Part shown: positions 2,583-36,648 of the stretch, piece by piece | Numbering within the stretch: the first letter of the stretch is position 1 | How the letters are laid out: each line of letters starts with the position of its first letter | NCBI GenBank assembly: GCA_964426385.1 | Contig: CAYRQF010000004.1 | Location: forward strand, 12,573 to 76,572 | Source of the DNA: an uncultured Candidatus Saccharibacteria bacterium | Lineage (GTDB): Bacteria > Patescibacteriota > Minisyncoccia > Phycocordibacterales > CSBR16-119 | Direction: 5' to 3' | DNA: 64,000 bases | Notes under the pieces: model-generated | The model's input: only the letters and a program-made list of their open reading frames with translations | Database searches by the model: none | Told to the model about the DNA's origin: nothing | Translations under genes and position numbers: made by a program

Positions 2583-2903
2583 CTCCGCAAAACATAAATT
2601 TTCTCACCCTGTGGATCGCAAGCGCACTCACGAAAAAACCGCCTGTAGGCGGATTTTTTCTGCGTGTTCGGGTCCTCGGGTTCTAAAATTTATGTTTTGC
2701 TCCGCTATGAGGTTACCGTCTCGACCCTTGGAAAAACACCGTTAAAAAACCAAAGTGGTTTGCTTTAGAAAACAGTTCTGTTCGAAGAAAGGCCTAAGCC
2801 TTTCTAGTTAACGGTTTTCTTGGCCAAAACCGCTTTGGTTTTAGGTGCTTTTACACTGGGTCTAGATTTTTTGTTACTTTTGCATCATGGCAAAAGTAAG
2901 GAG
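2583..2903. repeat. Copy 1 of a ~320-bp structured intergenic repeat family (palindromic A-module 2583-2712 plus multi-hairpin B-module)
   Basis: The outer stem gcaaaacataaatttt...aaaatttatgttttgc encloses CGCAAGCGC and an inner terminator-like hairpin. The B-module carries the hairpins gaaaggc-ctaa-gcctttc and acttttgc-atcatg-gcaaaagt. It shares order and about 75% identity with 11734-12047. Confidence 0.7.
2633..2662 (+). terminator. Rho-independent terminator after rplS (inside repeat copy 1)
   Basis: aaaaaaccgcctgtaggcggattttttctgcg: a GC stem followed by a T6 run. It is nearly identical to the terminator module after pnp at 8264. Confidence 0.7.
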
Positions 2904-2910: not shown

Positions 2911-3831
2911 TTATTTCTTCCTCTTCGAGTGAAAATTCTTGTGCACTTGTCGAAGTTGAGTGTCGGTAACGTGGGTATAGATCTGAGTTGTGGCGATGTT
3001 GGCATGGCCGAGCATCATCTGGACTGAGCGGATATCAGCGCCGTTTCGGAGTAGGTCGGTCGCGTAGCTGTGGCGGAGTGTGTGTGGTGTAACTTTTTTG
3101 GATATGCCAGCAATAATGGCGTATTTTTTTACCAGTCTCTCTATCGAGCGAGGAGTGAGGCGCATCTCGCCCTTGGCATTTTTATTCTTGCCGAACTGGA
3201 TGAACATGGCGTCATCCATGTCTTTGCGGAGTTTCAAGTATGCCTTGATCGCACTTTTGGCTTCGTCGGACAGGAATACTACTCGGACTTTCTCGCCCTT
3301 GCCTCGGATAGAGAATTCGTCTTTGGTGAGATCTAGGTCGCGGTTGAGGCTAGCGAGCTCGGCGAGACGAAGTCCTGTGGAGAAGAATAGTTCGAGAATC
3401 GCTTTGTCTCGGAGCGCTGAGATATCTGCGCCCTTCGGGGCAGAGAGGAGTCTCTCGAGTTCAGTGTGTGACATGAGGTCGAGGCTTCTCTGGGCAGTCT
3501 TGGCGAGTTCGATCTTGTCTGGCGACATAGTGGTGACCCCGCGCTTCATCATGTACTTGAGGAAGCTCCTGAGCGCTATGAGGTGATAGTTCTGAGTGTT
3601 CTTCTTCATGCTCGCCGCAGTCTGTCCACGAACCTTCATACCAGACTGGCGGTTCAGGAAAAGACGAAACTCGCGAAGTTTGTTCTCGTCTATGTCGGCA
3701 GCATCACCAATCTTCGCAAAATCGAAAAACTTGGTTAGGTAGTGGTCGTAATTGCGAACAGTCCGGAGGGACAGACCTTTCTCGATCTCGACGTATTCGA
3801 GGAATTGTGTTTTGGCCTCGGCAATCTTCAT
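2911..3831 (-). CDS. tyrosine site-specific recombinase, XerC/XerD family
   Basis: The C-terminal catalytic region HTLRHSYATDLLRNGADIRSVQMMLGHANIATTQIYTHV (R-H-R-Y tetrad) together with the N-terminal core-binding domain. Confidence 0.9.
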   Translation of the reverse strand: MKIAEAKTQFLEYVEIEKGLSLRTVRNYDHYLTKFFDFAKIGDAADIDENKLREFRLFLNRQSGMKVRGQTAASMKKNTQNYHLIALRSFLKYMMKRGVTTMSPDKIELAKTAQRSLDLMSHTELERLLSAPKGADISALRDKAILELFFSTGLRLAELASLNRDLDLTKDEFSIRGKGEKVRVVFLSDEAKSAIKAYLKLRKDMDDAMFIQFGKNKNAKGEMRLTPRSIERLVKKYAIIAGISKKVTPHTLRHSYATDLLRNGADIRSVQMMLGHANIATTQIYTHVTDTQLRQVHKNFHSKRKK

Positions 3832-4412
3832 GCATGTATTATACCAAGCGTCGTAAAATAATGGAGATATGCACTAAGTTAGAGATTTGATGTTTGACTA
3901 AGACTTTCAAGAATAAGATAATTAATGAACCGAGGGCTCAGGGTTGGGTATCCGCAAAAGCGGAAGCTGCTCGGCTGACGAAAGGGCTTCTAAGCGAGAA
4001 CGTGGGCGTTCCACGTTCTCGCCTGGAGGACGCTCTTCCGATCATGTTCATTACTGGAGCTCTTGCTCCACCTATATCCACCGCTCTTGTCAGGGCGGTG
4101 TGTTTTTATTTGACAACATCCGTGATCTGGCAGAGAATACAACTATCCCTTAACAGTCCGTGCGATGGAGGGCTGACGATTGTGAAGTTGGTAGGTTGAG
4201 TGAACTCTTCTGAGCGAGCGGTGCGGGCCTGGATCAGGCTTGCGGAATAGGCTTTGGTGGAAGTTCTGAACTGCTGCCCCGGGTCCGTACCCTCACTTGG
4301 AAGAGAAGTTCTTTTGTCACATGCAAATACACGTCAAACCAAACGTTCCTCGAAGAAGACTGTGCTGTTCGCCTGTGAAAGCTGCCGCCCTCGGGCGGCT
4401 TTCGCGTTATAT

Positions 4413-4440
4413 TGACTTAATTATCCAGATATGTTACTAT
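4413..4440 (+). promoter_or_regulatory. sigma70-like promoter (TTGACT-16-TACTAT)
   Basis: Near-consensus -35 and -10 hexamers about 190 nt upstream of rpsO. Confidence 0.5.
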
Positions 4441-4630
4441 CTAGGGGTTCCAAAAGCTTGCCCGGACACCTATTATTTCATCATTTTGCTTTTTCAAAAT
4501 AATCTAATCAATATTTCGGGTGCAAGTAAGAAAACAGCCTAAAAATACCAATATTCTGGCAAAATAAAAGCCATGAAATAATTGGTGTAAGGGCTTGCGG
4601 AACATTTTTATATATAGTAATATCCGACAC

Positions 4631-4897
4631 ATGTTAACGACAGCCAAAAAAGCGAAAGTCATCAAGAAGGCCCAGATCCACGATAAGGATACAGGTTCTT
4701 CTAATGCACAGATTGCTATTCTTTCAGAAAGAATCAAGGAGCTATCCGACCATTTGAAAAAGCACAAAAAGGATAACCACTCTCGCAGAGGTCTAATCAA
4801 GCTCGTCGCTAAGCGCCGAAACCACTTGAAATTCCTCGAGAGAAATGACAAGGCTGCTTTCGAGCAGATCTCAAAAGAGCTCAAGCTTGCTAGCTAA
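4631..4897 (+). CDS. rpsO: 30S ribosomal protein S15 (uS15)
   Basis: DTGSSNAQIAILSERIKELSDHLKKHKKDNHSRRGLIKLVAKRR matches the uS15 consensus. The start is the internal Met of ORF 4595..4897. Confidence 0.9.
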   Translation: MLTTAKKAKVIKKAQIHDKDTGSSNAQIAILSERIKELSDHLKKHKKDNHSRRGLIKLVAKRRNHLKFLERNDKAAFEQISKELKLAS

Positions 4898-4950: not shown

Positions 4951-5052
4951 TGCAAGCCCCCACACCTATATTTTGATTGCGCCGAAGGCGCGTTTATAAA
5001 ACTATAAAAATATAGGTGTGGGGGCAAGCAAAGGAACAATTTATTTTTTTTA
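4951..5052 (+). terminator. Large hairpin with inner hairpin and T-run downstream of rpsO (terminator/attenuator)
   Basis: A 21-bp perfect stem, gcaagcccccacacctatat...atataggtgtgggggcaagc, encloses the GCGCCGAAGGCGC hairpin and is followed by ttattttttttaat. Confidence 0.65.
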
Positions 5053-5697: not shown

Positions 5698-5730
5698 GAT
5701 TTAGGATTTAAGAAGTAAGATTTAAAAGCA

Positions 5731-5758
5731 AAAAGCCCAATTCGGGCTTTTTGCTTTT
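5731..5758 (+). terminator. Rho-independent terminator
   Basis: aaaaagcccaattcgggctttttgctttt. Confidence 0.7.
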
Positions 5759-5761
5759 GGT

Positions 5762-5801: not shown

Positions 5802-5953
5802 GGCCCTTTAGCTCAGCCCGGGAGGTGACTTGATAGTCAAGGATCGTTGTTTGTGTACTAGTTAAGCAAACAGCATGAATTGCCAGTATTTTCACCAGAC
5901 AGAGCGCTCGACTGCCAGTTGAGAGGTCCCTAGTTCAAATCTGGGAAGGGCTA
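5802..5953 (+). tRNA. tRNA-Gly (anticodon GCC) interrupted by a ~80-nt insertion in the D-loop (possible intron or pseudogene)
   Basis: The acceptor GGCCCTT (5802-5808) pairs with AAGGGCT (5946-5952). The D-stem halves GCTC (5811-5814) and GAGC (5902-5905) are separated by 87 nt. The anticodon arm CTCGA-CTGCCAG-TTGAG (5907-5923; U33, GCC, A37) is intact, as is the T-arm CCTAG-TTCAAAT-CTGGG. The insert is closed by ggtga/tcacc. Confidence 0.6.
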
Positions 5954-6104: not shown

Positions 6105-8219
6105 ATGAAAGAAAAGAAATTTAGTTTAGAGCTTGGGGGACAGAATATTGTCGCCACTTTTTCGGATTTTGCCGATCAGTCGAACGCTGTGTTCATGTCC
6201 TGCAACGACACGATCGTTCTAGTTACAGCAGTCATGTCCAAAGAAAAGAGCGATATGCCGTACTTCAACCTCACAGTCGACTATCTCGAGAAGTTCTATG
6301 CTTCGGGCAAGATTGGCGGAGGCAGGTTCATGAAGCGTGAAGGCAAGCCGACAGACGAGGCTATACTTGCTGGGCGTGTTATCGACCGCACCATCCGTCC
6401 ACTCTTCGATCAGACTATGGAATACGGCGTTCAGATCATTGCTACAGTCCTGTCTATGGATGACTCGATTGATCCAGGCATACTCGCCGTGAATGGTGCG
6501 TCTCTCATACTCTCAGTTTCCGAGATCCCATGGGCTGGCCCTGTCGGTGCAGTTAGACTCGGAGAGTTTGAGGGTAAAGTGCTCCTGAACTCATCTCAGA
6601 AAACTCGCCAAGCTGGTTTTGATTACGACCTCATCGTCTGTGGTAAGGATGGGCGGGTGAACATGGTTGAAGCTATCGCTTACCAGATCCCCGAGGACGT
6701 CATCGCTGCCGGACTAGCCAAGGCATCGACTGAGATAACGAAGCTTGAGAACTGGCAGAAGGAGATAGGCAAAGAGCTCGGCAAGACCAAGCGTGTCATC
6801 GAGAAAGAAAATGTTTCAGCTGAAGTTCTGGCAATATTTAATGACAAGATTGCCGGAGTGCTCAAAGACTACGTTATGACCGGCACTCCAGGTAAAGAAA
6901 AGATGGAGGAGATCAAGTCTGTTTGGAAAAAAGCTCTGAAGGACGCAATGCCTGATGCCAAATCTCTGAAGAAAGAGATGGAATACTTCGAAGAAGAGAT
7001 CAACAAGATTATTCACGATGAGGCTGTGCAGAATGACAAGCGTGCGGATGGTCGCAGGATGGATGAGGTGCGAGAACTCTTCGCCAAGGCTGGTGGATTC
7101 TCGTCACGTCTCCACGGAACAGGTATTTTCTATCGCGGAGGTACACACATCCTGACAGCGCTTACGCTCGGTGGTCCAGAAGACATGCAGCTCGTTGATG
7201 GCATGGAGGTAGAAGAGGACAAGCGCTTCATGCATCACTATAACTTCCCACCGTACTCCGTCGGAGAAACTGGTCGGGCTGGATTCGTGAACCGCCGCGA
7301 GGTCGGCCACGGTGCACTCGCTGAGAAGGCTCTCGAAGTCGTGCTCCCGAACAAAGAAGATTTCCCCTATACTATCCGTCTCGTGTCAGAAGCTCTAGCC
7401 TCGAATGGTTCGACATCTCAGGCGTCCATCTGCGCCTCTACTCTCGCTCTCATGGACGGCGGTGTGCCGATCAAGGCGCCAGTCGCCGGCATCGCTATGG
7501 GACTCATGTACAAGGATGAACAGAACTACAAAGTCCTGACTGACATCCAGGGCCCTGAGGATCACCACGGTGACATGGACTTCAAGGCGGCCGGTACTGA
7601 GAAGGGTGTCACAGCCATCCAGCTCGATGTGAAGGTGGAGGGTGTCAGTCTAAAAATTCTCGGTGAAGCACTCGAGCAGTCTAAAAAGGCTCGTATGCAG
7701 ATACTCGAGGTTATCAAGGCGGCTATTCCAGAACCACGCAAAGAGATTAGTCCATTCGCACCGAAGATTGTCGTGACGAAAATCGCTCCATCAAAGATCG
7801 GCCTCGTTATCGGTGGAGGTGGCAAGACAATCAACGAGATTCGCGAGAAGACTGGTACCGAGATCACTATCGAGGACGACGGAACAGTCTACATCACCGG
7901 ACTTGCTGATGGACCAGAGCGTGCCAAGAAGATAATCGAAGACATGGTCTTCGAGTGGCCGATAGGTTCTGTTACTAGTGGGGAAGTTGTCGGTATCAAG
8001 GAATTCGGTGCGTTCGTCAAAATGATGAATGGGCAGGAAGGTATGGCACACATCTCTGAACTTGCAGACTTCCGTGTAGAGAAAGTAGAGGATTACCTCA
8101 AGCTAGGCCAGATAATCCCAGTCAAAGTTGTAAAGATAGAGAACGGCAAGATTGGGCTCTCAATCAAGCAAGCACAGAAAGACTTCCTGACAAAAAAGAG
8201 CTCCGAAAAACCTGTTTAG
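6105..8219 (+). CDS. pnp: polynucleotide phosphorylase (PNPase)
   Basis: Two RNase PH-like domains, the RLHGTGIFYRGGTHILTALTLGG motif, a KH domain (GLVIGGGGKTINEIREKTG) and an S1 domain at the C-terminus. It follows rpsO, as in the canonical operon. Confidence 0.95.
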   Translation: MKEKKFSLELGGQNIVATFSDFADQSNAVFMSCNDTIVLVTAVMSKEKSDMPYFNLTVDYLEKFYASGKIGGGRFMKREGKPTDEAILAGRVIDRTIRPLFDQTMEYGVQIIATVLSMDDSIDPGILAVNGASLILSVSEIPWAGPVGAVRLGEFEGKVLLNSSQKTRQAGFDYDLIVCGKDGRVNMVEAIAYQIPEDVIAAGLAKASTEITKLENWQKEIGKELGKTKRVIEKENVSAEVLAIFNDKIAGVLKDYVMTGTPGKEKMEEIKSVWKKALKDAMPDAKSLKKEMEYFEEEINKIIHDEAVQNDKRADGRRMDEVRELFAKAGGFSSRLHGTGIFYRGGTHILTALTLGGPEDMQLVDGMEVEEDKRFMHHYNFPPYSVGETGRAGFVNRREVGHGALAEKALEVVLPNKEDFPYTIRLVSEALASNGSTSQASICASTLALMDGGVPIKAPVAGIAMGLMYKDEQNYKVLTDIQGPEDHHGDMDFKAAGTEKGVTAIQLDVKVEGVSLKILGEALEQSKKARMQILEVIKAAIPEPRKEISPFAPKIVVTKIAPSKIGLVIGGGGKTINEIREKTGTEITIEDDGTVYITGLADGPERAKKIIEDMVFEWPIGSVTSGEVVGIKEFGAFVKMMNGQEGMAHISELADFRVEKVEDYLKLGQIIPVKVVKIENGKIGLSIKQAQKDFLTKKSSEKPV

Positions 8220-8263
8220 AAATGCGCGCGTTCTCGCTTGTAAACGGCGAGCCGCTCAGTCTA

Positions 8264-8298
8264 GAAAAAATCCGCCCTTCAAAAGGCGGATTTTTTCT
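8264..8298 (+). terminator. Rho-independent terminator after pnp
   Basis: aaaaaatccgcccttcaaaaggcggattttttctgc. Confidence 0.75.
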
Positions 8299-8397
8299 GC
8301 TAAGTCATTTCTAAACAGGTTTTTACTTCGTAGAGAGTCGCCACTTTCCCCCTAGAAGCTAGTCACTAGTCACTAGAACCCTGATATAATTATCACC

Positions 8398-9336
8398 ATG
8401 GCTGACGAACCAACTGATATAAGTAAGGCTTTGGAAAAAGCTGATGAGAGCATTACAACCAAGAATGCTTTGGCGACTAAGCACGCCAAGCAGACAGGTG
8501 AGGTTCGTACGTACGCGACCGATATCGGCGAGATGATGAAGAAGGAAAAAGGCTCCGTTATCAAGATAGCTCTGGCTGAGCAGAAACGTCGCGACGAGTA
8601 CAAGAAAAAGACTGACCCGACCGCAACTCGTAATATTGTCGTTGTTATGCTCGGATTCATCCTCATCGTCGGTGGCATAATGATATTCATTTACACTGTG
8701 ATGAATAGGGCGAGACCTGTAGAGGTGACGAGCTTCGTAACCACACTTCCAAGCTTCATATTTACCGAGAACCAGGTTCAGATCGATGTGACAGAACTCA
8801 ACCGCACAGAGCTCATCGCTGCTATCCGGGCACAGGTGAACAACACCACCCTCGGCGCCGAGACCATTAACAATTTGTTTGTTTCATATCGTGGGGTGAA
8901 CGGACAGGCTCAGATCCCATCGACCTTATTCCTACAGAAACTCGGCGTGGAGATCCCTGATACGTTGGCGCTGAATCTGTATCCAGAATTTTCCCTGGGC
9001 GTATATAGTCTGCCTAGAGGCAATGACCTGTTTATGATATTGCGGGTCAAGGATTTTAATGAGGCGTTCAGTGCAATGCGTGAATGGGAGTCATACATGC
9101 TGACAGAGATGGTCAGGCTATACAGTATCGATACGAAAGATTATGGCAAGGAGATATTTACCAAGGATTTCGAGAACGAGACTATATATAACAAGGAGGC
9201 TAGGATACTCAAGGACGAAGACGGCAAAGCCATACTTTCATACATATTCCTCGATACTCGTACCGTTATGATAACCACTCAGACTGACTCAGTGGGAGAG
9301 GTGATAAAAAGGTTGAATCTACAGACTATTAAGTAG
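8398..9336 (+). CDS. hypothetical single-pass membrane protein
   Basis: Charged N-terminus, then the TM helix IVVVMLGFILIVGGIMIFIYTVM, then an extracytoplasmic domain. TATAAT lies 11 nt upstream of the ATG. Confidence 0.6.
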   Translation: MADEPTDISKALEKADESITTKNALATKHAKQTGEVRTYATDIGEMMKKEKGSVIKIALAEQKRRDEYKKKTDPTATRNIVVVMLGFILIVGGIMIFIYTVMNRARPVEVTSFVTTLPSFIFTENQVQIDVTELNRTELIAAIRAQVNNTTLGAETINNLFVSYRGVNGQAQIPSTLFLQKLGVEIPDTLALNLYPEFSLGVYSLPRGNDLFMILRVKDFNEAFSAMREWESYMLTEMVRLYSIDTKDYGKEIFTKDFENETIYNKEARILKDEDGKAILSYIFLDTRTVMITTQTDSVGEVIKRLNLQTIK

Positions 9337-9366
9337 CTGATAGCTTTTAGCGTATAGCTTATAGAA

Positions 9367-9729
9367 ATGAACGAGACTATTAAATCTCACAAAGAATTGA
9401 TCGTTTGGTAAAAAGCCTTTGAGCTGACTAAAATGATCTATAGGTTGAGTGAGAAATTACCATCAAAGGAAAACTTTAGTCTACAGAATCAAATTAGAAG
9501 AGCTGCCGTGTCCATACCGTCAAACATTGCCGAAGGTCGAAATAGAAAAACTGCGAAGGATTTCCTGCAATTCCTTCGTTTCGCCTTTGGTTCCGTCGCT
9601 GAAGTAGACACTCAGTTGCTTCTGATGAAAGATCTGTATGGAATTAGTTCAAAAGAATGTGATGAATTACTAATAGAGGTAAGCAAGATGCTCAGGTCAA
9701 TGATCGTTAAGCTAGAAGCAAAAAGCTAG
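9367..9729 (+). pseudogene. four-helix-bundle protein (TIGR02436 / Avd-like / 23S-rRNA-IVS-protein family) interrupted by an in-frame TAA at the conserved Gln codon
   Basis: The translation MNETIKSHKELIVW*KAFELTKMIYRLSEKLP...QIRRAAVSIPSNIAEG...FLQFLRFAFGSVAEVDTQL matches the family motif LIVWQKA...RRAAVSIPSNIAEG throughout. The stop at 9419-9421 replaces CAA. The ORF-track call 9433..9729 is the remnant downstream of the stop. Confidence 0.7.
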
Positions 9730-9761
9730 ACGCTATAAGCTACTGTGTTAAAATAGTCACT

Positions 9762-10115
9762 ATGGACATACAAACATTAAGAAGCAAGCTATTAGAAGAA
9801 CGCGCTCAGCTCGAGAAAGAACTCGGCGATCTCGGTGTTCGGGATCCAGAGACGGGTGATTGGGGGGTTGTAGGTGAGCCTGACGGCGAAGAAGCTGACA
9901 AGAACGATATGGGAGACCGTGACGAAGAGTTCGCAACGAAAGCCAATACTCTCGGTCAGTTAGAGCTCCGATATAAAGACGTTAATGACGCATTGGTCAA
10001 TATCGAAAAGAATGATGGTTCATACGGCAAATGTACAATCTCTGGCGAGATGATCGAAGAAGATCGCCTGATGGCGAATCCTGCTGCCAAGACCTGTAAG
10101 GCGCACATGGATTAG
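9762..10115 (+). CDS. DksA/TraR-family-like protein (acidic coiled-coil, degenerate C-terminal zinc finger)
   Basis: The C-terminal GKCTISGEMIEEDRLMANPAAKTCKAH resembles the DksA/TraR C4 finger but has only Cys-x-Cys-x2-His remaining. The N-terminus is an acidic coiled-coil. Confidence 0.5.
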   Translation: MDIQTLRSKLLEERAQLEKELGDLGVRDPETGDWGVVGEPDGEEADKNDMGDRDEEFATKANTLGQLELRYKDVNDALVNIEKNDGSYGKCTISGEMIEEDRLMANPAAKTCKAHMD

Positions 10116-10171: not shown

Positions 10172-10228
10172 CACAACTTTTCTTAAATCTTAATTCCTAA
10201 ATCTTAGATCTCTTGTTAAAATTTATTT

Positions 10229-11728
10229 ATGTCGTTTTCTCGTGTTTACTCGGCACAAATAAATATTTTAGATGGTCAGCTTATCACCGTCGAGACGGAT
10301 ATTTCTCGCGGACTTCATAATTTTGCCATCGTCGGACTCGCGGATAAAGCCGTGGAGGAAGCACGTGATCGTGTCGGGTCTGCAATCAAAAACTCAGGCC
10401 TGAAATCTCCGAAACAATCGAATCAGAAAATCGTCGTTTCGCTCTCACCGGCGAATGTGAAAAAAGAAGGTTCGTATTTTGATCTCGCTATCGCTCTCGG
10501 GTACATGCTCTCGAATGATGAGATCAAATTCGACCCTGAGGGTCGGATATTTCTCGGAGAGCTCGCACTAAATGGGGAACTGAAGCCGGTCAAAGGAGTG
10601 CTATCACTCGTAAAGTCCGCCAAGGCTTTAGGCTTTCGGGAAGTTTATGTCCCAACACAGAATGCCAAAGAAGCAGCGCTGATCGAGGGTATACAGATAT
10701 TTCCTGTTAAAAATCTGAAAGAGGTCGTGGAACACTTGAGTGCCGACAAGCCGTTCTGCATAGACTGTCAGCCTGTAACACCTATCGTATACGGAGAGCG
10801 CAAATTTGCTATAGATTTTGCCGACGTCCGAGGTCAGGAGCTCGCCAAGCGCGGGCTCGAGATCGCGGCAGCTGGTGGGCACAACATCGCTATGTATGGC
10901 CCGCCAGGCACAGGGAAAACTATGCTCGCTAGGGCATTCTCATCCATACTTCCCGGATTATCCAAAGAAGATATCCTAGAAGTCACTGCGATACATAGTA
11001 TCGTCGGCATACTCGAAGACTCACTAGTGACAGAGACGCCTTTTCGCTCACCGCACTCGACCAGTAGTTACGTGTCAGTTATCGGTGGCGGAACATTCCC
11101 GAAGCCTGGAGAAGTAACGCTCGCACACAAAGGCGTTTTATTTCTAGACGAATTCCCGGAGTTCGATCGTCGTGTGCTCGAGTCCCTGCGTCAGCCACTC
11201 GAGGACCGTGTAGTGAACATCGCCCGCGCTAGAGGCTCTGCTACGTATCCAACCAATTTCATCCTCATTGCCGCTATGAATCCACCACCAGCGAATGCCA
11301 GTGCTGCCGAGATCGTACGATATCGGAAAAAGATTTCAGGGCCGATTATGGACCGTATCGATATGTGGGTGAACGTCGTGAATATCGATTATGACAAGCT
11401 CGGGAGCAAAGAGCGCGAGGGTGAGCTGAGTGAAAATATTAAAAAGAGAGTGGTGACTGCTCGTGATAAACAGAAGGCGAGACTAGGGCAGTCTCGTGCA
11501 CGGACGAATGCTGAGATGGGAGTCAAAGATATCGACAAGCTCATCACGCTCGGGAAAGATGTAAAGGATATCCTGAATACCACAGCCAAGAAACTGAATC
11601 TATCAGCGAGAGCGTATCATAGAGTTATCAAGCTCGCTCGGACGATAGCGGATCTAGATGCTAAGGAGGAGATACAGATGAAGCATGTACTAGAGGCGCT
11701 TCAATACCGACCGAGAGAGATGGCGTAG
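10229..11728 (+). CDS. comM: YifB/ComM-family Mg-chelatase-like AAA+ ATPase
   Basis: N-terminal Lon-like domain, Walker A GPPGTGKT, and a C-terminal ChlI-like domain. The length and layout are typical of ComM/YifB. Confidence 0.9.
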   Translation: MSFSRVYSAQINILDGQLITVETDISRGLHNFAIVGLADKAVEEARDRVGSAIKNSGLKSPKQSNQKIVVSLSPANVKKEGSYFDLAIALGYMLSNDEIKFDPEGRIFLGELALNGELKPVKGVLSLVKSAKALGFREVYVPTQNAKEAALIEGIQIFPVKNLKEVVEHLSADKPFCIDCQPVTPIVYGERKFAIDFADVRGQELAKRGLEIAAAGGHNIAMYGPPGTGKTMLARAFSSILPGLSKEDILEVTAIHSIVGILEDSLVTETPFRSPHSTSSYVSVIGGGTFPKPGEVTLAHKGVLFLDEFPEFDRRVLESLRQPLEDRVVNIARARGSATYPTNFILIAAMNPPPANASAAEIVRYRKKISGPIMDRIDMWVNVVNIDYDKLGSKEREGELSENIKKRVVTARDKQKARLGQSRARTNAEMGVKDIDKLITLGKDVKDILNTTAKKLNLSARAYHRVIKLARTIADLDAKEEIQMKHVLEALQYRPREMA

Positions 11729-11733: not shown

Positions 11734-12047
11734 CGCTCCGCAAAACATAAGCTTTCTCAAACCCTCGAAGACGCAAGCGCCGGCTTTTGCCTAAAACGGC
11801 AAAACCGGTTACGTTCTCGGATTTTCGAAAGCTTATATTTTGCTCCGCTACGAGGGAGACGGGATGACCCTTGTAAAAACATCGTCAAGAAACCAGGATG
11901 TTTTGCTTTAGAAGGCCGTATTGTCTGAACAAAGCCAAAGCTTTGTGAGTTTACGGCTCTTCTTAGCCAAAAACATTCTGGTTTTAGGTGTTTTTACACT
12001 GGGTCTTGGGCTTTTGTTACTTTTGCCCCAAGGCAAAAGTAAGAGAG
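11734..12047. repeat. Copy 2 of the structured intergenic repeat family (A-module 11734-11860 plus B-module)
   Basis: The A-module is about 95% identical to 50143-50260. The B-module is about 75% identical to 2713-2903, with covarying hairpins caaagc-caa-gctttg and acttttgc-cccaag-gcaaaagt. Confidence 0.7.
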
Positions 12048-12149: not shown

Positions 12150-13178
12150 CTAGTACATCGCATCGGCTATAGCTCGACCGTTTATGCCAGATTTGCCTGG
12201 ACGAATCTCGAAGTGTAGATGAGGGCCTGTTGAGCGGCCGGTGTTTCCGACGGCGCCTATTACCTGACCTTTGGTGACCTTCTGTCCTTGTTTGACGTCT
12301 ATTCGTGACTGGTGAGCATACAGAGTCTGTGTACCGTTAGCGTGTCCGATGATAGTGAGATTACCGTATCCTCCGTTCCAGGCATTGCCACCTTTGACCA
12401 CCATGACGATACCGTCTGCCATGGCCTTGATCGGAGTACCAGTTTTCGCGGCGATATCTACGCCGTGGTGAGAGGCAGTGTGTTGACGGCTCTCGACGCC
12501 GACAACCGGTCTCGCATAGTAGCCTTTGCTCGAAACAGTCGTTTTAGAAGTTGTCTTCGTCGCTAATTTTACTGGCTCAGTGTCCTCTATCTCGCCTCTC
12601 GGGATGATGAGTGTGCTACCTGCCACCAACTGAGCACCTTCTTCTAGACCGTTGAATATGAGGATCTCGCCAACGTCTCCGCCGAAGTCTTTGGCAACTT
12701 TTTCTATAGTCACGCCAGGTCTGACAGTATATTTGACCCCGTTGATAGGGAGGATGATGATGGTGTCACCTTTTTTCACTGTACCTTTGAGAGGGATATT
12801 GTTTGCCCAGCGGATAGTGTTTGGGGAGATGTCGTACATCTCAGCGATAGCGGCTATCGTATCTCCATCCTTAACCGTATATACGGCGATGTCTTTTGAC
12901 GCGGACATGTTGGCGACTTCTGCCTCTGTGTCCGTGACTGGACTGAAGTTCGCTACGAGAGCAAAGTCTTCCGTCCTGATTTCGTCAGACCCACCTGTAG
13001 CACCGGTAGCGGCTGGCCGTATCCTCGAGCTTAGGAGTGTCACCGTCTGGGAGTTGTATGAGTTAGTCCGTGGTGAGTAGAGCGCTTCTTGTTCTGAAAG
13101 GGCGATGCCAGCACCGAGGAGAGGGCTCACCATGAATGTGGTCACCGCTACGACTGGACCAAAAGAAACATACGCCAA
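12150..13178 (-). CDS. M23-family metallopeptidase with two LysM domains
   Basis: LysM motifs YTVKDGDTIAAIAEMYDISPNTIRWANNI and YTVRPGVTIEKVAKDFGG. The M23 catalytic region contains HHGVDIA...GHANGTQTLYAHQS...GNTGRSTGPHLHFEIR. Confidence 0.9.
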   Translation of the reverse strand: MAYVSFGPVVAVTTFMVSPLLGAGIALSEQEALYSPRTNSYNSQTVTLLSSRIRPAATGATGGSDEIRTEDFALVANFSPVTDTEAEVANMSASKDIAVYTVKDGDTIAAIAEMYDISPNTIRWANNIPLKGTVKKGDTIIILPINGVKYTVRPGVTIEKVAKDFGGDVGEILIFNGLEEGAQLVAGSTLIIPRGEIEDTEPVKLATKTTSKTTVSSKGYYARPVVGVESRQHTASHHGVDIAAKTGTPIKAMADGIVMVVKGGNAWNGGYGNLTIIGHANGTQTLYAHQSRIDVKQGQKVTKGQVIGAVGNTGRSTGPHLHFEIRPGKSGINGRAIADAMY

Positions 13179-22261: not shown

Positions 22262-23167
22262 ATGATTTCAAAATACCTCCCAAGTAAGAAATTCGTCAAA
22301 GTCATGGGCGTGGTAATAATTACCGGCGTCGTGATTTTGGCGGTAGCTATGCTCGTCAGTCGTCGGCAAACTTTTGAGAATAAAAACGATGAGTCTCTAT
22401 TTCTCGTTGAGGGTGCAATAGAGAATTTTTATAACACAGATACGGATAAGGACGGAGTCTATGATTGGGAAGAGGGTCTGTGGGGAACGGATCCATTCAA
22501 TAAAGACACTGACAGTGACGGGGTGACAGACGGAGAAGAGATCGGTTCTAACAAAGAAGAGATACGCGAGAAGAATAATCTCGGGGGGGAGGTCACCGCC
22601 TCTGAGGACTTGAATCAGACTGAGATATTTGCTCGGCAACTATTCTCAGCAGCATCACTTGCCGGACAGCAAGGCGGCCTTTCTCAGGAGTCTATGGAGG
22701 CGTTCTCTAAATCTTTTGGTGGTGCCATTTCCGACTCCAAGATAAAAGATCCTTTCACATTGTCTGATCTAAAGCTTACAGCCGTGAGTCCTGTCGACTA
22801 CAAGACCAGCCTCGGTGAAGCTTTTGACCCATACTTGCAAGCCGGGATTAATCCACTCAACGTTATATATAGATTCTCTAATGGCGACACTGCAGTTTCT
22901 GGAGATATAGATCAGCTTTCGGAGATTTATAACGGTATCTCGAATTCTTTGCTTGCGATTCCAACACCGCATAACGCCGCTGGCATCCAGTTGTCTTTGA
23001 TAAACACAACAGCAAAACTCTCTTTGGCATTTATAAACATGAAACACATAGAAGATGATCCGATACTCGCCGTCGTTGGTTTCTATCAGTATCAGGAATA
23101 CTCAGTAGAGCTCGAGAATACCCTCGAAAAATTGAAGAGTTATTTTAACTCAAGTGGTATAATCTAA
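22262..23167 (+). CDS. membrane-anchored hypothetical protein with Asp-rich Ca-binding-like repeats
   Basis: N-terminal TM segment. DTDKDGVYDWEE...DTDSDGVTDGEE resembles thrombospondin-type-3/dockerin-like DxDxDG motifs. Confidence 0.55.
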   Translation: MISKYLPSKKFVKVMGVVIITGVVILAVAMLVSRRQTFENKNDESLFLVEGAIENFYNTDTDKDGVYDWEEGLWGTDPFNKDTDSDGVTDGEEIGSNKEEIREKNNLGGEVTASEDLNQTEIFARQLFSAASLAGQQGGLSQESMEAFSKSFGGAISDSKIKDPFTLSDLKLTAVSPVDYKTSLGEAFDPYLQAGINPLNVIYRFSNGDTAVSGDIDQLSEIYNGISNSLLAIPTPHNAAGIQLSLINTTAKLSLAFINMKHIEDDPILAVVGFYQYQEYSVELENTLEKLKSYFNSSGII

Positions 23168-23176
23168 TCGTATTTT

Positions 23177-25465
23177 ATGAAATTCGCAATTAAGCTACTC
23201 AAGAAAACATTCTGCCTCGTCCTGATTGCATCACTGTTCAGTCAGACTGCGCTAGTTTTTTCTCCTGAGTATGTGGAGGCTCAAGGGGTGGGCGGGGGCG
23301 CCTCAGGACAGGTTAGCACAGGCTTCGGAGCCTCGGGCATAATAGGTACCGCTCTAAACTGTTCAGGTGTGATGGATAAGCTGGCCGGCGCACTCAGCGG
23401 CCTGTTCAAAGTTACTGTAAAAGAAGTGCCTGTAGGGGATAATACAAACAACACTAAAGAGGGTTGCCTTGACAGTATCGCTCACGAAATCGTCGTCCGT
23501 ATCATGGATAAGATAACTCTAGCTACTGTTGATTGGATCAATAATGGTTTCGAGGGTCAGCCACTTTTCCTAGAAGACCCTCAGAAATTCTTTGAAAACG
23601 TGGCCGCTCGCGAGATTAACTCTCTGACCGGTTGGTTTACAGCTAGCCCAGAGGGCTACCCGTTCGGGCAGATTGTTATGACAACAATACTTACGAATCT
23701 ACAATCACAGTTCTCCCAGAACGTTCAGTTCTCACTGAACGAAGTATTGGCACATGGAACATATGAAGATTTCAGATTCAATTTCAATGTCGGCGGATGG
23801 GCCGGCTATTCAGCTTTTTATAAACCAAATAACAACCCTTTTGGTAACTATTTACTTGTTAACCGAGAACTCGGTAGGAAGATCGGAGGGACGACTATTA
23901 CTGTCGGTGACAACTATAGTAAACAGATTCAGCAGTCTGGAGGATTCTTGAATCAGAGAAAGTGTGTAGTGTCAGGAACAGGTAACAACGACTATATCCC
24001 AGAAGACGATGAGTCAGGGTACCATATACCATCAGGTGGCATGCCTACGATCGCCCTCTGGGAGTTCTTGATTGGCGCCGATCAGGGTACACCGGCATTT
24101 CAGAGCGTTTACGACCAACTCCAGCCGGGATTCACTGGACCACTCACCGCACAGGCCACAGACGTTCAGGCTCAGATAGAAAACTATGAACTACGCAGTA
24201 CATGTCGCGAGTGGAAAACTATTACGCCAGGCAAGGTGGTTTCAGATCAGCTGACATCCGCACTCAACATACCTACGAATCAGTTGATACAGGCCGACGA
24301 GGTCAGTGAGAACCTCGCGCTCATTTTCGACGCGTTACTACTTCAGTTGGTAAACACAGGACTACGATCCCTCGACGGGGATGATCCTTCTACGAACGTT
24401 GCGTTGGCACAGGTCCAGGGCTTACAGCCAGGGCAGGTTTCAAACGGTCAGACCCCTCCTCCATCGGTTGATACAATAACTGGAACAGGATATTCACAAG
24501 AGCCATTAGTTCTGGTGCAACAGTCCTATATTCAGCAGGCTCAGCAAGCTATGCCAGTTCTGGATAATTTAATACGTAAGATTAAAGCTTTGGATTATTG
24601 TGTACCCGGACCGCACCCTTCTTGGGTTGATGAGGCTCAGCAAAACTTAGAGAATTCATTACTCAGTGTCGGGGCTTTTGCCTCCAGTAACCCAGACCCT
24701 CAGGACGCCGAAGATGAGAATCAAGATTACTACGCTAGCGTTATCCAGAGTCTAACCGGTATAACAATAGAACAAAGCCCGGCGATGCATAACCATACTC
24801 AGTTTATGGATTTTATGAACAACCTTTACGCAAAATATTCCGAAAAGATGCTAAATCCTAGTGACGCTGGATATAATCGATTCTTGACCCCGCCTTCTAC
24901 CAGAATATTCCTGGAAAATCTATTGAATGAGATGCAGGTTTACCAAGCCTCGTATGATGATCTAAATGAATATCTTAATAACATTACCTCATATTTACCA
25001 ACACTTATATCTATAGAGGCAACTATAAATAACATCGCACAGACTAACGGTGGAATAGTTGATCCGACCAACCCACAGGTTCAGGCGCAGATATCATTGT
25101 TTGAGAGTATCAATAGTCATTTCGCCACGGAAGCACAGCTCAGTGATTTGCAGACAAATTACGTATTGTTCCAGAACAGGGAGACCACAGTAAACAGTCA
25201 TTTGGATAGCTGTATAACCGAAACGGTGGTTGGGCCATACAATAATCCGAATAATAGGGTGGCTTATCCAGCTGCGATATTCCCATATGTACACAGTGTC
25301 TCATTGGTACCACTTCCGGGCCCGAACGACAGCTTCTTCGATGGAATTCAATTTGCTGGCAATACAAACAACGGCAACATAGATGTTACTTTTGGTGGGG
25401 TCAATATCAATGCAGGTGCGACACTTGACACATTCGAAGACCAGGTTCTCCAGTCCATCTACTAG
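23177..25465 (+). CDS. large secreted hypothetical protein (762 aa, Gln/Asn-rich)
   Basis: Signal peptide MKFAIKLLKKTFCLVLIASLFSQTALVFSPEYVEA. No recognisable catalytic motifs. Confidence 0.6.
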   Translation: MKFAIKLLKKTFCLVLIASLFSQTALVFSPEYVEAQGVGGGASGQVSTGFGASGIIGTALNCSGVMDKLAGALSGLFKVTVKEVPVGDNTNNTKEGCLDSIAHEIVVRIMDKITLATVDWINNGFEGQPLFLEDPQKFFENVAAREINSLTGWFTASPEGYPFGQIVMTTILTNLQSQFSQNVQFSLNEVLAHGTYEDFRFNFNVGGWAGYSAFYKPNNNPFGNYLLVNRELGRKIGGTTITVGDNYSKQIQQSGGFLNQRKCVVSGTGNNDYIPEDDESGYHIPSGGMPTIALWEFLIGADQGTPAFQSVYDQLQPGFTGPLTAQATDVQAQIENYELRSTCREWKTITPGKVVSDQLTSALNIPTNQLIQADEVSENLALIFDALLLQLVNTGLRSLDGDDPSTNVALAQVQGLQPGQVSNGQTPPPSVDTITGTGYSQEPLVLVQQSYIQQAQQAMPVLDNLIRKIKALDYCVPGPHPSWVDEAQQNLENSLLSVGAFASSNPDPQDAEDENQDYYASVIQSLTGITIEQSPAMHNHTQFMDFMNNLYAKYSEKMLNPSDAGYNRFLTPPSTRIFLENLLNEMQVYQASYDDLNEYLNNITSYLPTLISIEATINNIAQTNGGIVDPTNPQVQAQISLFESINSHFATEAQLSDLQTNYVLFQNRETTVNSHLDSCITETVVGPYNNPNNRVAYPAAIFPYVHSVSLVPLPGPNDSFFDGIQFAGNTNNGNIDVTFGGVNINAGATLDTFEDQVLQSIY

Positions 25466-25543
25466 CGTGGTATTTACACACATATTTTACCTAGAACCAC
25501 TTGGCCAGGTGGTATAATCTGGTCATTGCACTAGGCAGTTTAT

Positions 25544-27709
25544 TTGCGCCTTTTTATAATGAAGAAATTTTTCCTCTCACTCATTATCGGGTTACTCATA
25601 TTTGGTCCTGTTACGGGGTCCGTGCCTTTGGCGCACGCTCAAGTGAATCCGAGCGAGAACCCTTATCAGAGTTATGAGAACGAAGTAGGTGAGTGCTGGG
25701 CACTGAACAAGGGTATCGACATAGGCATGTGTTTCGCCTGGGTTATGTACTTCTTCGCTTGGATCACCAGTAGCTTCGCCGAGCTTACTGCTATGCTCAT
25801 GGACTACTTCCTAGCGTACTCTCTCGATAGTGGGTCATATAGTGGAGCCAACAATCAGTTCGTGGAGATGGGTTGGTCTATCATCAGAGATATCGCGAAC
25901 ATTTTCTTCATATTTACACTTCTCTATATCGCCATCCGTCATATATTGCAGATGGGCGGGAGCGATACGAAAAAACTGCTCACGAGTCTCATCATCGCGG
26001 CGCTACTCATCAACTTCAGTTTGTTTTTTACCAAAGTCATCATCGACAGTAGCAACATTTTAGCCAGGGCGTTCTATAACAATATCGTGGTAGAGAATGA
26101 TGACAACCTCGACCATAAATCCATTTCTCAAGCACTCGTTTCTCAGGTGAACCCGCAGAAACTCATATCATCAGACATGTTCAAGCCGGTCCCAGCTCCA
26201 GGAAGACTTCCGACCGAGCCTGATGCCGGATGGCTCATCACAATATTTTTCCTTGCGACCATCGTGAACATCGCTATGGCTTGGATATTCCTGAGTACAT
26301 TTTTGCTATTTATAGCGCGCGTTATCGGACTCTGGTTCATGATGATATTCTCGCCGATTGCTCTCGCTTCCAGGGCTATTCCCGGAGCTGAGGGTATGCT
26401 CGGGGATTTTGGTTGGAGTGGTTGGATCAAGAGCACACTCAAACTCGCTTTCATGGCGCCGATATTCGTGTTCTTCCTTTTCCTCCTCACGATGTTTTTG
26501 AACGTTGCGCTCCAGTCAGTTACGGTAGAGGTGGACCAGAGCACGATGCAACGCATCATGTCTGTGCTCATTCCTTTCATGGCTATTATCATCATTATGA
26601 CAAAGGCCAAAGACACTGCTACTGAGATGGCCGGAACGTTCGGTCAGGCAGTATTGAGTGGTGTCGGTAAACTTGCCGGGTTCGCAGTCGGCGCTGCGGG
26701 TGTCGGTCTTGCGGGAACGGCAATGGTAGCTAGGGGAACCATCGGCCGTGCCGCCACTGCCGCCGCTGGCAGTAGGAGTTTCCAAGAAGCTGCATCAAAG
26801 AACAAATACTTTCTTGCTAAAAGTTTGTATAAGGGGGCTCAAGCCGCTTCAAAGGGAAGTATGGACGCGAGAAATAGTACTGGCTTTAGGAGAACTACAG
26901 GTTTGCTAGCCTCAGGCTTGGCAGCGGCTGGTATTGCAACCAAAGCAGACCTTGGAAAAGGTACTACAAGAGGTGGGTACTCACAGCGGTTAGAAGAATA
27001 TCAAAAGAAGAAAGAGAAATTCAAGGAAGATCTCAAGTCTTCGGATCATGATACTTTTAGTGTTACTGATCCTAGAGATCCAACCAAAACCCTTACAACA
27101 TCAGTCATTCAAGCCGAAACCGAATTTTTGAAAGCTCAGAATGAAGCAAAGAGAAAAGACGAAAATAAAAATATAAAAAGTGCTACTATCGGCAACCCAA
27201 GGGAGGATGTCGTTAAAGATTATGATGGTTGGGTAAAAGAAAAAGAAAAAGCCGAAAAAGCCCAGAAACAAGCAGAGATCGATTTTGCAAACGTTCAGAG
27301 GGACCCAGCTTCAACACTTGTGCAAAAAGATGCTGCAAGGGTAAAGAAAGACTATTTTACCGACAGGCATGCTGAAATTAGAGGTGTGGTAAAAGGAATA
27401 GAGGAAAACTGGGAAACTGAGGAGAAGATCTTCAAGGGAATCAAGAGAGAGCAGACCAAACATGACACTAAGGTGTTACAACAATACGCCGAGTCCGTTA
27501 AACCAGTCTCACTCGACACATCTTCTCTTGGCGCAGGTATAAAAACTGGCAGTATGGTTGCACTGGCGCAACTATATGGTTTGGCAAATGGATCAGAAGG
27601 CACATACGTTGCAGGAAGAAGTGCAGCTTCTGCAGAACTTGCACGTTCTGCCGAGAAGGAGGAGAAGAAAGCTCAGGCTGAGGCGAAAAAAGACGACAAG
27701 AAAACATAA
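25544..27709 (+). CDS. polytopic membrane protein, putative VirB6/TrbL-like channel component with Lys-rich cytoplasmic tail
   Basis: Signal/TM segment followed by at least six hydrophobic helices over aa 60-400, then a long hydrophilic KE-rich C-terminus. The size and topology fit TrbL/VirB6. It lies two genes upstream of the VirB4-like ATPase. Confidence 0.45.
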   Translation: MRLFIMKKFFLSLIIGLLIFGPVTGSVPLAHAQVNPSENPYQSYENEVGECWALNKGIDIGMCFAWVMYFFAWITSSFAELTAMLMDYFLAYSLDSGSYSGANNQFVEMGWSIIRDIANIFFIFTLLYIAIRHILQMGGSDTKKLLTSLIIAALLINFSLFFTKVIIDSSNILARAFYNNIVVENDDNLDHKSISQALVSQVNPQKLISSDMFKPVPAPGRLPTEPDAGWLITIFFLATIVNIAMAWIFLSTFLLFIARVIGLWFMMIFSPIALASRAIPGAEGMLGDFGWSGWIKSTLKLAFMAPIFVFFLFLLTMFLNVALQSVTVEVDQSTMQRIMSVLIPFMAIIIIMTKAKDTATEMAGTFGQAVLSGVGKLAGFAVGAAGVGLAGTAMVARGTIGRAATAAAGSRSFQEAASKNKYFLAKSLYKGAQAASKGSMDARNSTGFRRTTGLLASGLAAAGIATKADLGKGTTRGGYSQRLEEYQKKKEKFKEDLKSSDHDTFSVTDPRDPTKTLTTSVIQAETEFLKAQNEAKRKDENKNIKSATIGNPREDVVKDYDGWVKEKEKAEKAQKQAEIDFANVQRDPASTLVQKDAARVKKDYFTDRHAEIRGVVKGIEENWETEEKIFKGIKREQTKHDTKVLQQYAESVKPVSLDTSSLGAGIKTGSMVALAQLYGLANGSEGTYVAGRSAASAELARSAEKEEKKAQAEAKKDDKKT

Positions 27710-27717
27710 GTAAATCT

Positions 27718-28353
27718 ATGGATCTAGAATTCAAGAAAAAAATAGAAGAGCGCATGAAACAGCTTCCCTCTGTCCTGGCCAAGGCCATCAAGGCTTCGAA
27801 CTGGGAGAGTATCGTTTTCGATATTGGTCGCAGACACTCGCTTCATGTCGACGACATCGGCGACCTACAGAACGAACTTATCCTCGTCCTAACTGGCATC
27901 GTTCATCCTGACGAATTCCGTCATATTGTCATCAGTGAGATCGGTATCCCCGAAGACAAAGCCGACGTTATCATCGAAGAGATCAACGACCAAGTAAACG
28001 AGAAGATAAAAAACGAACTGAAGTCCATTATGGACGACGCAGACGAAGACAAAACTGTCGATACCGAGAGCGGGGAACTTGCTGGGTCTGAGAAGGAAGT
28101 CCTTAGAGATAGTGGTATCCGCCTCGGAGATGACGTCGATGAGACGGCGAATCAGCACACTCCTCCGGTAGCAGACGGTGTAGAAGCGCCGACTGTCGCA
28201 GTGCAGGCTCCGAAACCAGAACCAAAGCCTGTGAATCCAGTAACTGCGAAAATTATCGCCGAGCCTCAGGTGTTCAAGACTCGCATCTCTCCGGCAGAAG
28301 TCGGTGAGGCCGGCAGGGGATTCAGTGATCCTTACCGCGAGCCAGTAGAATAA
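27718..28353 (+). CDS. hypothetical acidic protein
   Basis: ORF in an operon-like arrangement, separated by an 8-nt gap from the VirB6-like gene. Confidence 0.5.
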   Translation: MDLEFKKKIEERMKQLPSVLAKAIKASNWESIVFDIGRRHSLHVDDIGDLQNELILVLTGIVHPDEFRHIVISEIGIPEDKADVIIEEINDQVNEKIKNELKSIMDDADEDKTVDTESGELAGSEKEVLRDSGIRLGDDVDETANQHTPPVADGVEAPTVAVQAPKPEPKPVNPVTAKIIAEPQVFKTRISPAEVGEAGRGFSDPYREPVE

Positions 28354-28447
28354 TTAGCTGATGGCTTATAGCTGTTAGCTTATAGAGAAATAATAAATTC
28401 CTAAAAGCTAAACGCTATCCGCTATAAGCTCGTGTTATAATACATTC
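28354..28447 (+). promoter_or_regulatory. Conserved promoter/operator module (copy A): GCTTATAGC palindromes followed by the extended -10 TGTTATAAT
   Basis: atggcttatagctgttagcttatagag...cctaaaagc...cgctataagctcgtgttataata is shared with 31695-31790. Related half-copies lie at 9337-9366 and 9730-9761. Confidence 0.55.
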
Positions 28448-28867
28448 ATGCGATTCCAAGTTCCGCAATTTATTGATATTGAAGACAAGATTTTTGGACC
28501 TTTTACGTTCAAGCAGTTTGTCTATCTCGCGGGAGGGGCTGGATCAGCCTATGCTATCTGGAAGCTCTTGCCGACACTTATCGCAGTTTTCCTCGTGCTC
28601 CCTATAATCGGGCTCGCTCTCGCGCTGACATTTTATAAAGTGAACGGCAAGCCATTTATCGAAGTCTTACAGGCCTATGCTTCGTATTCGACAAAGAGCA
28701 AGCTTTTTATTTGGAAACAGAGAAAGATTGAGAAAAAGAAGAAATTTGCCGAAGCTCCGAAGGAGAGTCGTCATCCGATGTCTAACATCCCTAGACTTAC
28801 CGAGAGCAGGCTGTCGGATATTTCATGGAGTTTGGATGTGCTCGATATGGAGAAGCGCGATAAATAA
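28448..28867 (+). CDS. small two-TM membrane protein (possible VirB3/TcpE-like component)
   Basis: Hydrophobic hairpin FVYLAGGAGSAYAIWKLLPTLIAVFLVLPIIGLALALTFY. A small membrane protein immediately upstream of VirB4 is typical of type IV secretion loci. Confidence 0.35.
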   Translation: MRFQVPQFIDIEDKIFGPFTFKQFVYLAGGAGSAYAIWKLLPTLIAVFLVLPIIGLALALTFYKVNGKPFIEVLQAYASYSTKSKLFIWKQRKIEKKKKFAEAPKESRHPMSNIPRLTESRLSDISWSLDVLDMEKRDK

Positions 28868-28975
28868 TCCCAAAACTGATTTTACTACCACAAAATGATA
28901 ATTTTAAATCACAACACAAAATTGGTCGGATCAGAATTTATTAGCATGATCAAAAATCAGTAACGGGACAAGTAT

Positions 28976-29626: not shown

Positions 29627-29627
29627 T

Positions 29628-31694: not shown

Positions 31695-31790
31695 CAGAGC
31701 TTACAGCGTATGGCTGTTAGCTTATAGAAATTCCACAAAATACCTAAAAGCAATAAGCTATACGCTAAAAGCTCGTGTTATAATATTTCC
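31695..31790 (+). promoter_or_regulatory. Conserved promoter/operator module (copy B)
   Basis: atggctgttagcttatagaa...cctaaaagcaataagctatacgctaaaagctcgtgttataata is homologous to 28354-28447. Confidence 0.55.
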
Positions 31791-32384: not shown

Positions 32385-32388
32385 AATC

Positions 32389-33375: not shown

Positions 33376-33377
33376 CA

Positions 33378-34958: not shown

Positions 34959-34962
34959 TCTC

Positions 34963-36588: not shown

Positions 36589-36613
36589 ATTTAAGATTTA
36601 GGAAGTAGGATTT

Positions 36614-36648
36614 AAGAAGAAACCCGCCATTGGCGGGTTTCTTCTTCT
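36614..36648. terminator. bidirectional Rho-independent terminator between convergent genes
   Basis: gaaacccgccattggcgggtttcttcttc, flanked by gatttaag/cttaaatc repeat arms. Confidence 0.7.

Follow-up and report, generated by a model that had tools for sequence, protein, structure and literature searches.

Palindromic repeats bearing putative terminators downstream of genes in one small Paceibacteria clade, a probable mosaic of miniature DNA elements

In the 64,000-nucleotide stretch of DNA analyzed here (the window), the spacer that separates the convergent genes rplS (2106-2576) and that encoding a XerD-like recombinase (2911-3831) consists entirely of element sequence. This composite (2577-2910, unstranded) comprises three units, termed A, B and C, with its outermost inverted repeats, AAAAGCCACTCC and GGAGAAGTCTTTT, abutting both stop codons. 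The first copy of A, found downstream of rplS (2583-2705, plus strand), begins with CTCC, continues as a palindrome running from GCAAAACATAAATTTTC to TAAAATTTATGTTTTGC and ends with TCCGC. Its apex, AAAAAACCGCC-TGTA-GGCGGATTTTTT, resembles a bidirectional terminator. The inner hairpin at 2639-2652 scores as terminator-like on both strands and, as read from the sequence, has the features of a bidirectional intrinsic terminator.

A second copy of A (11736-11848, plus strand) is located downstream of comM (10229-11728), with a LysM/M23 peptidase gene (12150-13178) facing it, while a third (50140-50252, plus strand) has neither B nor C attached. A preliminary description of this DNA had placed the first two copies after the stop codons of rplS and comM, as is indeed the case, and the third merely upstream of a gene. 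Although copy 3 does lie upstream of a promoter-like site of the gene at 49055-50071, it also falls downstream of the minus-strand HIT gene (50269-50667), whose stop codon is 7 nt away, in a position matching that of an element located, in the more distant genome L023, between PGK and HIT (9316-9460). Upstream of copy 3, the region 48255-50071 contains a 242-aa ORF and a gene encoding a secreted protein whose C-terminal tail is Por/T9SS-like. In the corresponding L023 region (8190-9872), the element comes right after the stop codon of PGK. In the close strain L022, the 242-aa ORF and the secreted protein-encoding gene are present, without HIT and without the element. L022 was considered as a clean empty site for copy 3 and dropped, as the HIT gene is missing there too.

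Reading and alignment confirmed that the three loci share a palindromic A-module. When both strands were searched for the arm sequence GCAAAAYRTAARYTTTC, it was found only at 2587-2700, 11740-11843 and 50144-50247. Upon allowing up to three mismatches, nine matches were obtained, six of which correspond to A-module arms (shuffle mean, 2.2). Copies 2 and 3 are 96% identical, despite their unrelated flanks and a distance of 38 kb, and copy 3 differs from copy 2 by an identical two-base change in both arms. Copy 1 shares 61-65% identity with the other two and differs in its interior, while CGCAAGCGC is common to all three. The T-tract at the apex of copies 2 and 3 is weak. The motif CTCCGC, previously said to border each copy on both sides, does so for copies 1 and 2 and to the right of copy 3, whereas CTACGC is found to the left of copy 3. 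Relative to shuffled sequences, both strands of the composites fold with z values of -8.4 to -9.9. Among the ORFs of the window, no conserved ORF was found within the elements, in agreement with the earlier view that they encode no protein.

Within the window, B and C accompany A solely at copies 1 and 2, again as had been described for B. The B-module (approximately 2706-2868 and 11849-12011, both on the plus strand) comprises a short linker hairpin and then a hairpin of some 140 nt, running from GACCC at 2723 to GGGTC at 2862 in the first copy and from GACCC at 11866 to GGGTC at 12005 in the second. The two are 75% identical, and each is followed by a C hairpin on the plus strand, namely, GTTACTTTTGC-ATCATG-GCAAAAGTAAG at 2873-2900 and GTTACTTTTGC-N6-GCAAAAGTAAG at 12016-12043; by chance, zero matches to the latter pattern are expected in the window. 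Both in the window and in the related strain L015, the order is terminator, then B, then C, in the sense of the upstream gene. Compensatory pairs account for 17 of 70 in B and C, and in the three related copies available, mismatches are mainly G-U on one strand (approximately 12-17 versus 3), with the consensus fold reaching -83.9 kcal/mol on the G-U-rich strand and -68.4 kcal/mol on the other. Such a strand bias, coming from three related sequences only, is suggestive, although not conclusive, and would be compatible with a transcript as well as with a single-stranded DNA intermediate. Assignment of B as 6S RNA was dropped, as it lacks the central bubble and its conservation does not extend beyond the species. 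As a separate observation, the C hairpin (CTTACTTTTGCCTTGGCGCAAAAGTAACAAAAAC in L015, 1561-1600) resembles a hairpin, AGTTACTTTTGCCCTTGGCGGCAAAAGTAACCAAAAAC, in two unrelated and visibly GC-rich IMG/VR contigs (L005, 2321-2360; L006, 7514-7553). The likeness extends beyond the arms used as query and may reflect coincidence or a shared motif.

The family had originally been thought to comprise three copies. A fourth element of the same architecture yet with different arms was, however, detected after pnp (8201-8331, plus strand), and at least 12 more exist in five related genomes. The pnp-associated element reads CTCCG, arms AAAAACCTGTTTAGAAATG, a hairpin X with a TGTAAAC loop, a terminator delimited by AGAAAAAATCCGCCCTT and AAGGCGGATTTTTTCT, and ACTTCG. 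The pnp reading frame (6105-8219) stops 19 nt inside this element, at a TAG in the left arm, so that the C-terminal residues of PNPase are element-encoded. Exact removal of the element (CTCCG to ACTTCG) would yield an in-frame TAG directly after the GAG of pnp. In L014, pnp likewise terminates within the element sequence CTCCGCGTAA.

Across the window, a stop codon followed by 6-7 nt and CTCC is confined to the four gene ends bordering elements, including that of xerD. The other gene ends examined, be they those of convergent pairs or operons, present plain terminators (i.e., A-tract, stem and T-tract), and many genes run directly into the next. The possibility that CTCCGC serves as a DNA-uptake sequence was also considered and rejected, since, judged by eye among the matches listed for a looser motif, it does not appear over-represented in the window (approximately 31 occurrences of CTCCGC expected by chance).

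Several additional features of the window were noted. Between xerD and rpsO (3832-4640), some 800 nt contain no convincing ORF. This gap includes promoter-like sites at 3894, 4110 and 4412 and strong terminator hairpins at 4079-4100 and 4374-4406, returned zero Rfam matches and may contain unannotated small RNAs. A second and unrelated family of palindromic repeats, with arms CCCCCACACCTAYWTTTTGAT, occurs after rpsO (4951-5030) and at 4465-4589, as well as in at least two related genomes (L013, 78-157 and 7071-7136; L019, 4525-4661). Arrays of the AT-rich motifs GATTTAAG and GGATTTAAGA, with the complement TAAATCTTAA, are arranged symmetrically around ordinary terminators at several gene ends (5698-5760, 10177-10211 and 36586-36680; in L012, approximately 5860-5940 on the minus strand). 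Repeated motifs of the AGCTTATAGC type are found just upstream of TGTTATAAT-like -10 boxes (9330-9365, 9706-9762, 28351-28451 and 31693-31794). Similar motifs occur in L014 and L015, and these may represent a shared promoter or operator module. Finally, the region 22262-36588 contains a type IV secretion-like cluster, including a TraG/VirB4-type ATPase, a T4SS pilin with an NlpC/P60 domain, a PG-binding protein and many ORFs without a Pfam match, while GGA/GGT-rich tandem repeats are found at 44958-45848, within a 1009-aa protein with a Gly_rich_2 domain.

Judged from the names attached to homologs, the source organism belongs to the Patescibacteria, close to Nomurabacteria/Paceibacteria. Syntenic loci from related genomes were retrieved via homologs of XerD, ComM and RecJ. 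When these are included, at least 16 A-class elements are counted in six genomes, and the A-module of the window emerges as a single subfamily within a wider class dispersed across a clade of relatives. Members are found after rplS, pnp and M23 in L014, together with a minimal hairpin after comM; after pnp, a gene encoding a 310-aa product and comM in L016; after rplS, NYN, pnp and comM in L019; after a PG-binding protein-encoding gene and PGK in L023; and after comM in L012. In general, a stop codon is followed after 2-7 nt by CTYCG(C), then by a palindrome of 105-160 nt and by another CTYCG(C), after which TAR-RAGGG frequently occurs. The palindrome arms are 17-25 bp long, start with GCAAA(N)C and enclose one or two inner hairpins. 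Usually there are two, one presenting a TGTAAAC loop and the other corresponding to an A-tract/GC-stem/T-tract terminator with CCTTCAAAAGG at the apex. A bidirectional terminator was also read by eye in the 8201 element and in most of the relatives. In versions found between convergent genes, the second core is inverted (GCGGAGC, which differs from GCTCCGC only in the central TCC/GGA) and the entire element forms one long hairpin.

These hairpins are maintained by compensatory changes. Arms are 89% complementary within their own element, as compared to 41% with the arms of other elements, and left arms share 42% identity between elements, with only some 10 nt being conserved at each end (CTCCGCAAA and TTTGCTCCGC). 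In a five-member alignment of the X-T subfamily, compensatory double changes were seen in 17 of 46 pairs.

The elements are gained, lost and replaced between close strains, and the same body is found at unrelated sites and in both orientations. The comM site offers three states among strains whose ComM proteins are 96-100% identical, namely, A of type 2 with B and C in the window, A of type 1, with an interior like that of window copy 1, in L012, and B and C alone, inverted on the opposite strand and without A, in L015, a 97%-identical strain. In L012, where XerD is 98% identical, a plain 32-nt terminator separates the rplS and xerD stop codons, and the spacer after pnp is similarly plain and lacks an A-class element. 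No A-class element was found in the 21.5 kb of synteny with the outgroup (ComM 74% identical), where plain bidirectional terminators follow comM and pnp; in all, plain terminators stand in place of elements in this outgroup and in two close strains. Nearest-neighbor comparison revealed that the closest relative of most elements lies at a non-orthologous site, with only the L014 and L019 rplS elements being mutual orthologous best matches. The bodies of the L019 NYN and L023 PG-binding elements are approximately 90% identical and oppositely oriented, with the CTYCGC flanks retaining the polarity of the upstream gene. In L016, one element adjoins a right-end remnant of another, as in a mosaic, and an arms-only form is present in L014. 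Moreover, short-read Logan contigs from the same strain end exactly inside elements, as would be expected were dispersed repeats to break short-read assembly.

The rplS-xerD junction behaves as an insertion hot spot beside the XerD-like gene. In relatives, it contains differing accessory genes, encoding GIY-YIG, ParE-like and YafQ-like toxins and unknown ORFs (L013, 1119-2307; L014, 10919-12800; L016, 372-1192; L019, 2218-3563).

Database searches offered no known counterpart. Rfam 15 matches in the window were limited to two tRNAs, with the best sub-threshold scores over the elements being 12-23 bits (E 0.2-9) when gathering and permissive thresholds were applied. Collections were scanned with a two-arm pattern specific to one subfamily (GCAAAANNTAANNTTTC-N55-85-AAANNTTANNTTTTGC). 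For that subfamily, this yielded one AT-rich chance match, in a Treponema MAG, among genome contigs, five unrelated palindromes among metagenome contigs and zero matches among viral contigs. A broader viral scan (CTCCGCAAA-N85-115-TTTGCTCCGC) gave 21 matches, approximately the number expected by chance, none of them palindromic. A blastn search of phage and plasmid collections with copy 2 returned no match. A literature search on palindromic repeats and terminators in Patescibacteria encountered no report of such elements; TIGR-Tas arrays, being tandem arrays of approximately 36-nt guides, are a different thing.

Taken together, it is probable that the loci represent a mosaic of miniature palindromic DNA elements of the MITE, REP-BIME or ERIC sort, each carrying its own terminator. 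On the best reading, they form a new family within a well-known type of element and do not represent a new RNA gene. Judged from the loci compared, the family appears to be restricted to one small Paceibacteria (CPR) clade. Unit A (105-160 bp) consists of 17-25 bp terminal inverted repeats around a hairpin interior, usually including a putative bidirectional intrinsic terminator, and flanked by CTYCG(C). The B hairpin (some 140 nt) and the 28-nt C hairpin are separate modules able to stand beside A or alone, in either orientation, and the loci are therefore mosaics. The elements occupy the ordinary terminator position in a very short post-stop spacer, at times providing the last codons and the stop codon themselves, and would be tolerated after genes because each brings a terminator. 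Copies would move, or be copied, as DNA between terminator sites, through an enzyme or recombination, and at the RNA level could serve as terminators or 3'-end hairpins.

Of the two possibilities raised in the preliminary description, that of a miniature mobile element gained ground, given presence or absence between near-identical strains, re-occupation of sites and near-identical copies at unrelated sites, in both orientations. Size and copy number are those of a MITE (A, 105-160 bp; A+B+C, some 330 bp; non-coding; four A-class copies in 64 kb), and the terminal inverted repeats proposed as a mark of such elements are clear (17-25 bp arms). Target-site duplication, the other proposed mark, is more equivocal, as a flanking direct repeat exists yet is always of the same sequence. 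CTYCG(C) flanks nearly every element, with both copies at the L019 NYN element being the variant CTTCGC. This constant repeat can be read as a target duplication of 3-7 bp at a favored CTCCGC site, as a recombination crossover core or as part of the element. The CTCCGC core is absent from the element-free L012 sites after rplS and after pnp. Since more distant relatives bear elements at these positions, the L012 sites may have arisen by deletion and need not be virgin. Across all loci, no uninterrupted target (i.e., 5' flank, one core and 3' flank) was found. Neither the 64 kb window nor the Pfam listings of some 190 kb of related loci include a transposase, HUH nuclease or reverse transcriptase, and neither revealed an autonomous element sharing these ends. 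The sole recombinase in the window is the 306-aa XerD-like protein, which is conserved across the clade, outgroup included. Counting against mobility is the low copy number, with four A-class elements in 64 kb. Likewise, the occupancy of the rplS, pnp, comM and PGK/HIT sites across the clade fits long residence with gene conversion as well as it does repeated insertion.

The behavior of the elements appears analogous to that of several known repeats, with no sequence relationship apparent. ERIC/IRU elements of the Enterobacteriaceae are imperfect palindromes of some 127 bp, found in transcribed intergenic spacers, non-coding and without a known transposase, which vary in presence between strains and in size through internal insertions and deletions. 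As compared to that description, the elements considered here are alike in palindrome size class, spacer location, lack of coding and strain-dependent presence. They differ in the inner intrinsic terminator, the constant 5-7 nt direct repeat, the placement 2-7 nt after a stop codon and the CPR lineage. REP/BIME and REPINs of E. coli and Pseudomonas are mosaic extragenic palindromes, often between convergent genes, that act as terminators or mRNA 3' stabilizers. REP units measure 20-40 nt, carry a conserved GTAG-type 5' head and are associated with a RAYT (Y1) gene that has REPs on both sides. Here too, the units are palindromic and mosaic, and copies within a genome are more alike than are orthologous ones, but the heads are CTCCGCAAA, the locus listings include no Y1_Tnp-type gene and copy number is far lower. 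Correia elements of Neisseria, RUP and other MITEs are 100-160 bp long, have terminal inverted repeats and lie near gene ends, serving as terminators or RNase III substrates. The present elements resemble them in size, terminal inverted repeats, gene-end location and presence/absence polymorphism. Whereas Correia elements generate a TA duplication and have a fixed consensus, the arms seen here diverge freely past approximately the first 8 nt, and the flank is a constant CTYCG(C). Integron attC sites share the location just after a stop codon, the imperfect palindrome of variable length and the conservation of the ends only. Their ends, however, are inverse RYYYAAC/GTTRRRY, while GCAAAAC/GTTTTGC lack YYY/RRR, and the conserved flanks here are direct repeats; no integron integrase or cassette array was found, with the neighbors being the core genes rplS, pnp, comM and PGK. 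Finally, true inverted repeats with direct-repeat flanks distinguish the elements from IS200/IS605 PATEs, as do the lack of tnpA or tnpB among the genes seen and of a match to the Rfam HEARO family. In the literature searched, such repeats are not described for the phylum.

The alternative that the elements are a structured non-coding or cis-acting RNA family, with the transcript acting as a 3'-UTR stabilizer, RNase III target or small RNA, is considered unlikely. The very stable folds, the many compensatory pairs, the conserved TGTAAAC and CCTTCAAAAGG loops and the fixed position 2-7 nt past stop codons would all be accommodated, as would, for B and C only, the one-strand G-U bias, the better fold on that strand and the order of B then C in the sense of the upstream gene. 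Yet Rfam offered no match even at permissive thresholds, the antisense strand of A-class elements is the more stable in 10 of 16 cases and G-U pairs are few (19 versus 32). This absence of a sense-strand folding bias, together with the rarity of G-U pairs, points to a true DNA palindrome rather than to a strand-specific RNA. The body can, moreover, be inverted relative to the gene, elements are missing from the outgroup and two close strains, and a transcript that stopped at the inner terminator would leave the outer arms unpaired in the finished RNA. As such, the earlier suggestion of a structured non-coding RNA was not borne out for the A-module.

It is likewise improbable that the elements are immobile, with resident terminators having grown palindromic arms in place by template-switch (quasi-palindrome) repair, to be homogenized by gene conversion. 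This would explain why the positions after rplS, pnp, comM and PGK are filled clade-wide, why the L014 and L019 rplS elements are mutual best matches and why no transposase was found, while the two-base change in both arms of copy 3 relative to copy 2 is what one-step palindrome correction would give. It is difficult to reconcile with an approximately 90%-identical body being found, oppositely oriented, at unrelated sites of different genomes, with the 96% identity of copies 2 and 3 in unrelated surroundings or with the presence of B and C on the other strand in L015. In addition, 7-25 bp of shared homology is short for RecA-driven conversion.

Less probable still is that these are site-specific recombination cassettes, in which the 7-nt GCTCCGC is the crossover core and a tyrosine recombinase, such as the XerD-like protein, moves, swaps and flips the elements. 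An excised or junction form would then read arm-GCTCCGC-arm, like a lox, dif or attP site. The direct-repeat core around inverted arms, keeping its polarity whichever way the body is oriented, the inverted GCGGAGC core of the convergent-gene versions, the re-occupation of the same sites by different family members and the inserted genes at the rplS-xerD junction of relatives are in keeping with such recombination. Still, a single core was not retained at the element-free L012 sites, the XerD-like protein is a housekeeping gene product conserved clade-wide and in the outgroup, no junction or tandem form was observed and DNA circles of 110-160 bp are physically unfavorable. The related idea that A-class elements are portable terminators moving without a transposase, with a host tyrosine recombinase, for example the single XerD-like enzyme, inserting, swapping and flipping the cassettes, is similarly quite doubtful; were it true, recombinase-moved cassettes would exist in a genome otherwise almost without mobile-element machinery. 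Least convincing, and very unlikely, is that an HUH (Y1) enzyme, encoded at another place in the genome, moves these as single-strand hairpin elements akin to IS200/IS605 PATEs or REP/REPIN-RAYT, for while the conservation of the ends alone (CTCCGCAAA and TTTGCTCCGC), with the rest merely pairing, as in structure-specific recognition, the REPIN-like size and long imperfect hairpin, and a B/C G-T bias compatible with a single-stranded DNA intermediate could all be so understood, no Y1 transposase or RAYT was present at any locus examined, a GTAG-type head is absent, the ends are true terminal inverted repeats rather than distinct left-end and right-end hairpins, and IS200/IS605 elements are not known to make flanking direct repeats, which the elements here possess.

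If the loci are indeed a mosaic of miniature DNA elements that carry their own terminators, they are of interest given that CPR/Patescibacteria genomes are small, tightly packed and usually described as poor in mobile DNA. Here, a terminator-replacing repeat family turns over between strains whose neighboring proteins are 96-100% identical. Repeats that break short-read assemblies would explain contig ends in these MAGs, and the same repeats could be used as strain-level markers. The family would also offer a tractable case of non-autonomous elements that persist by carrying a useful part, namely, a terminator, with the constant and polar direct repeat providing a concrete handle on the mobilizing enzyme.
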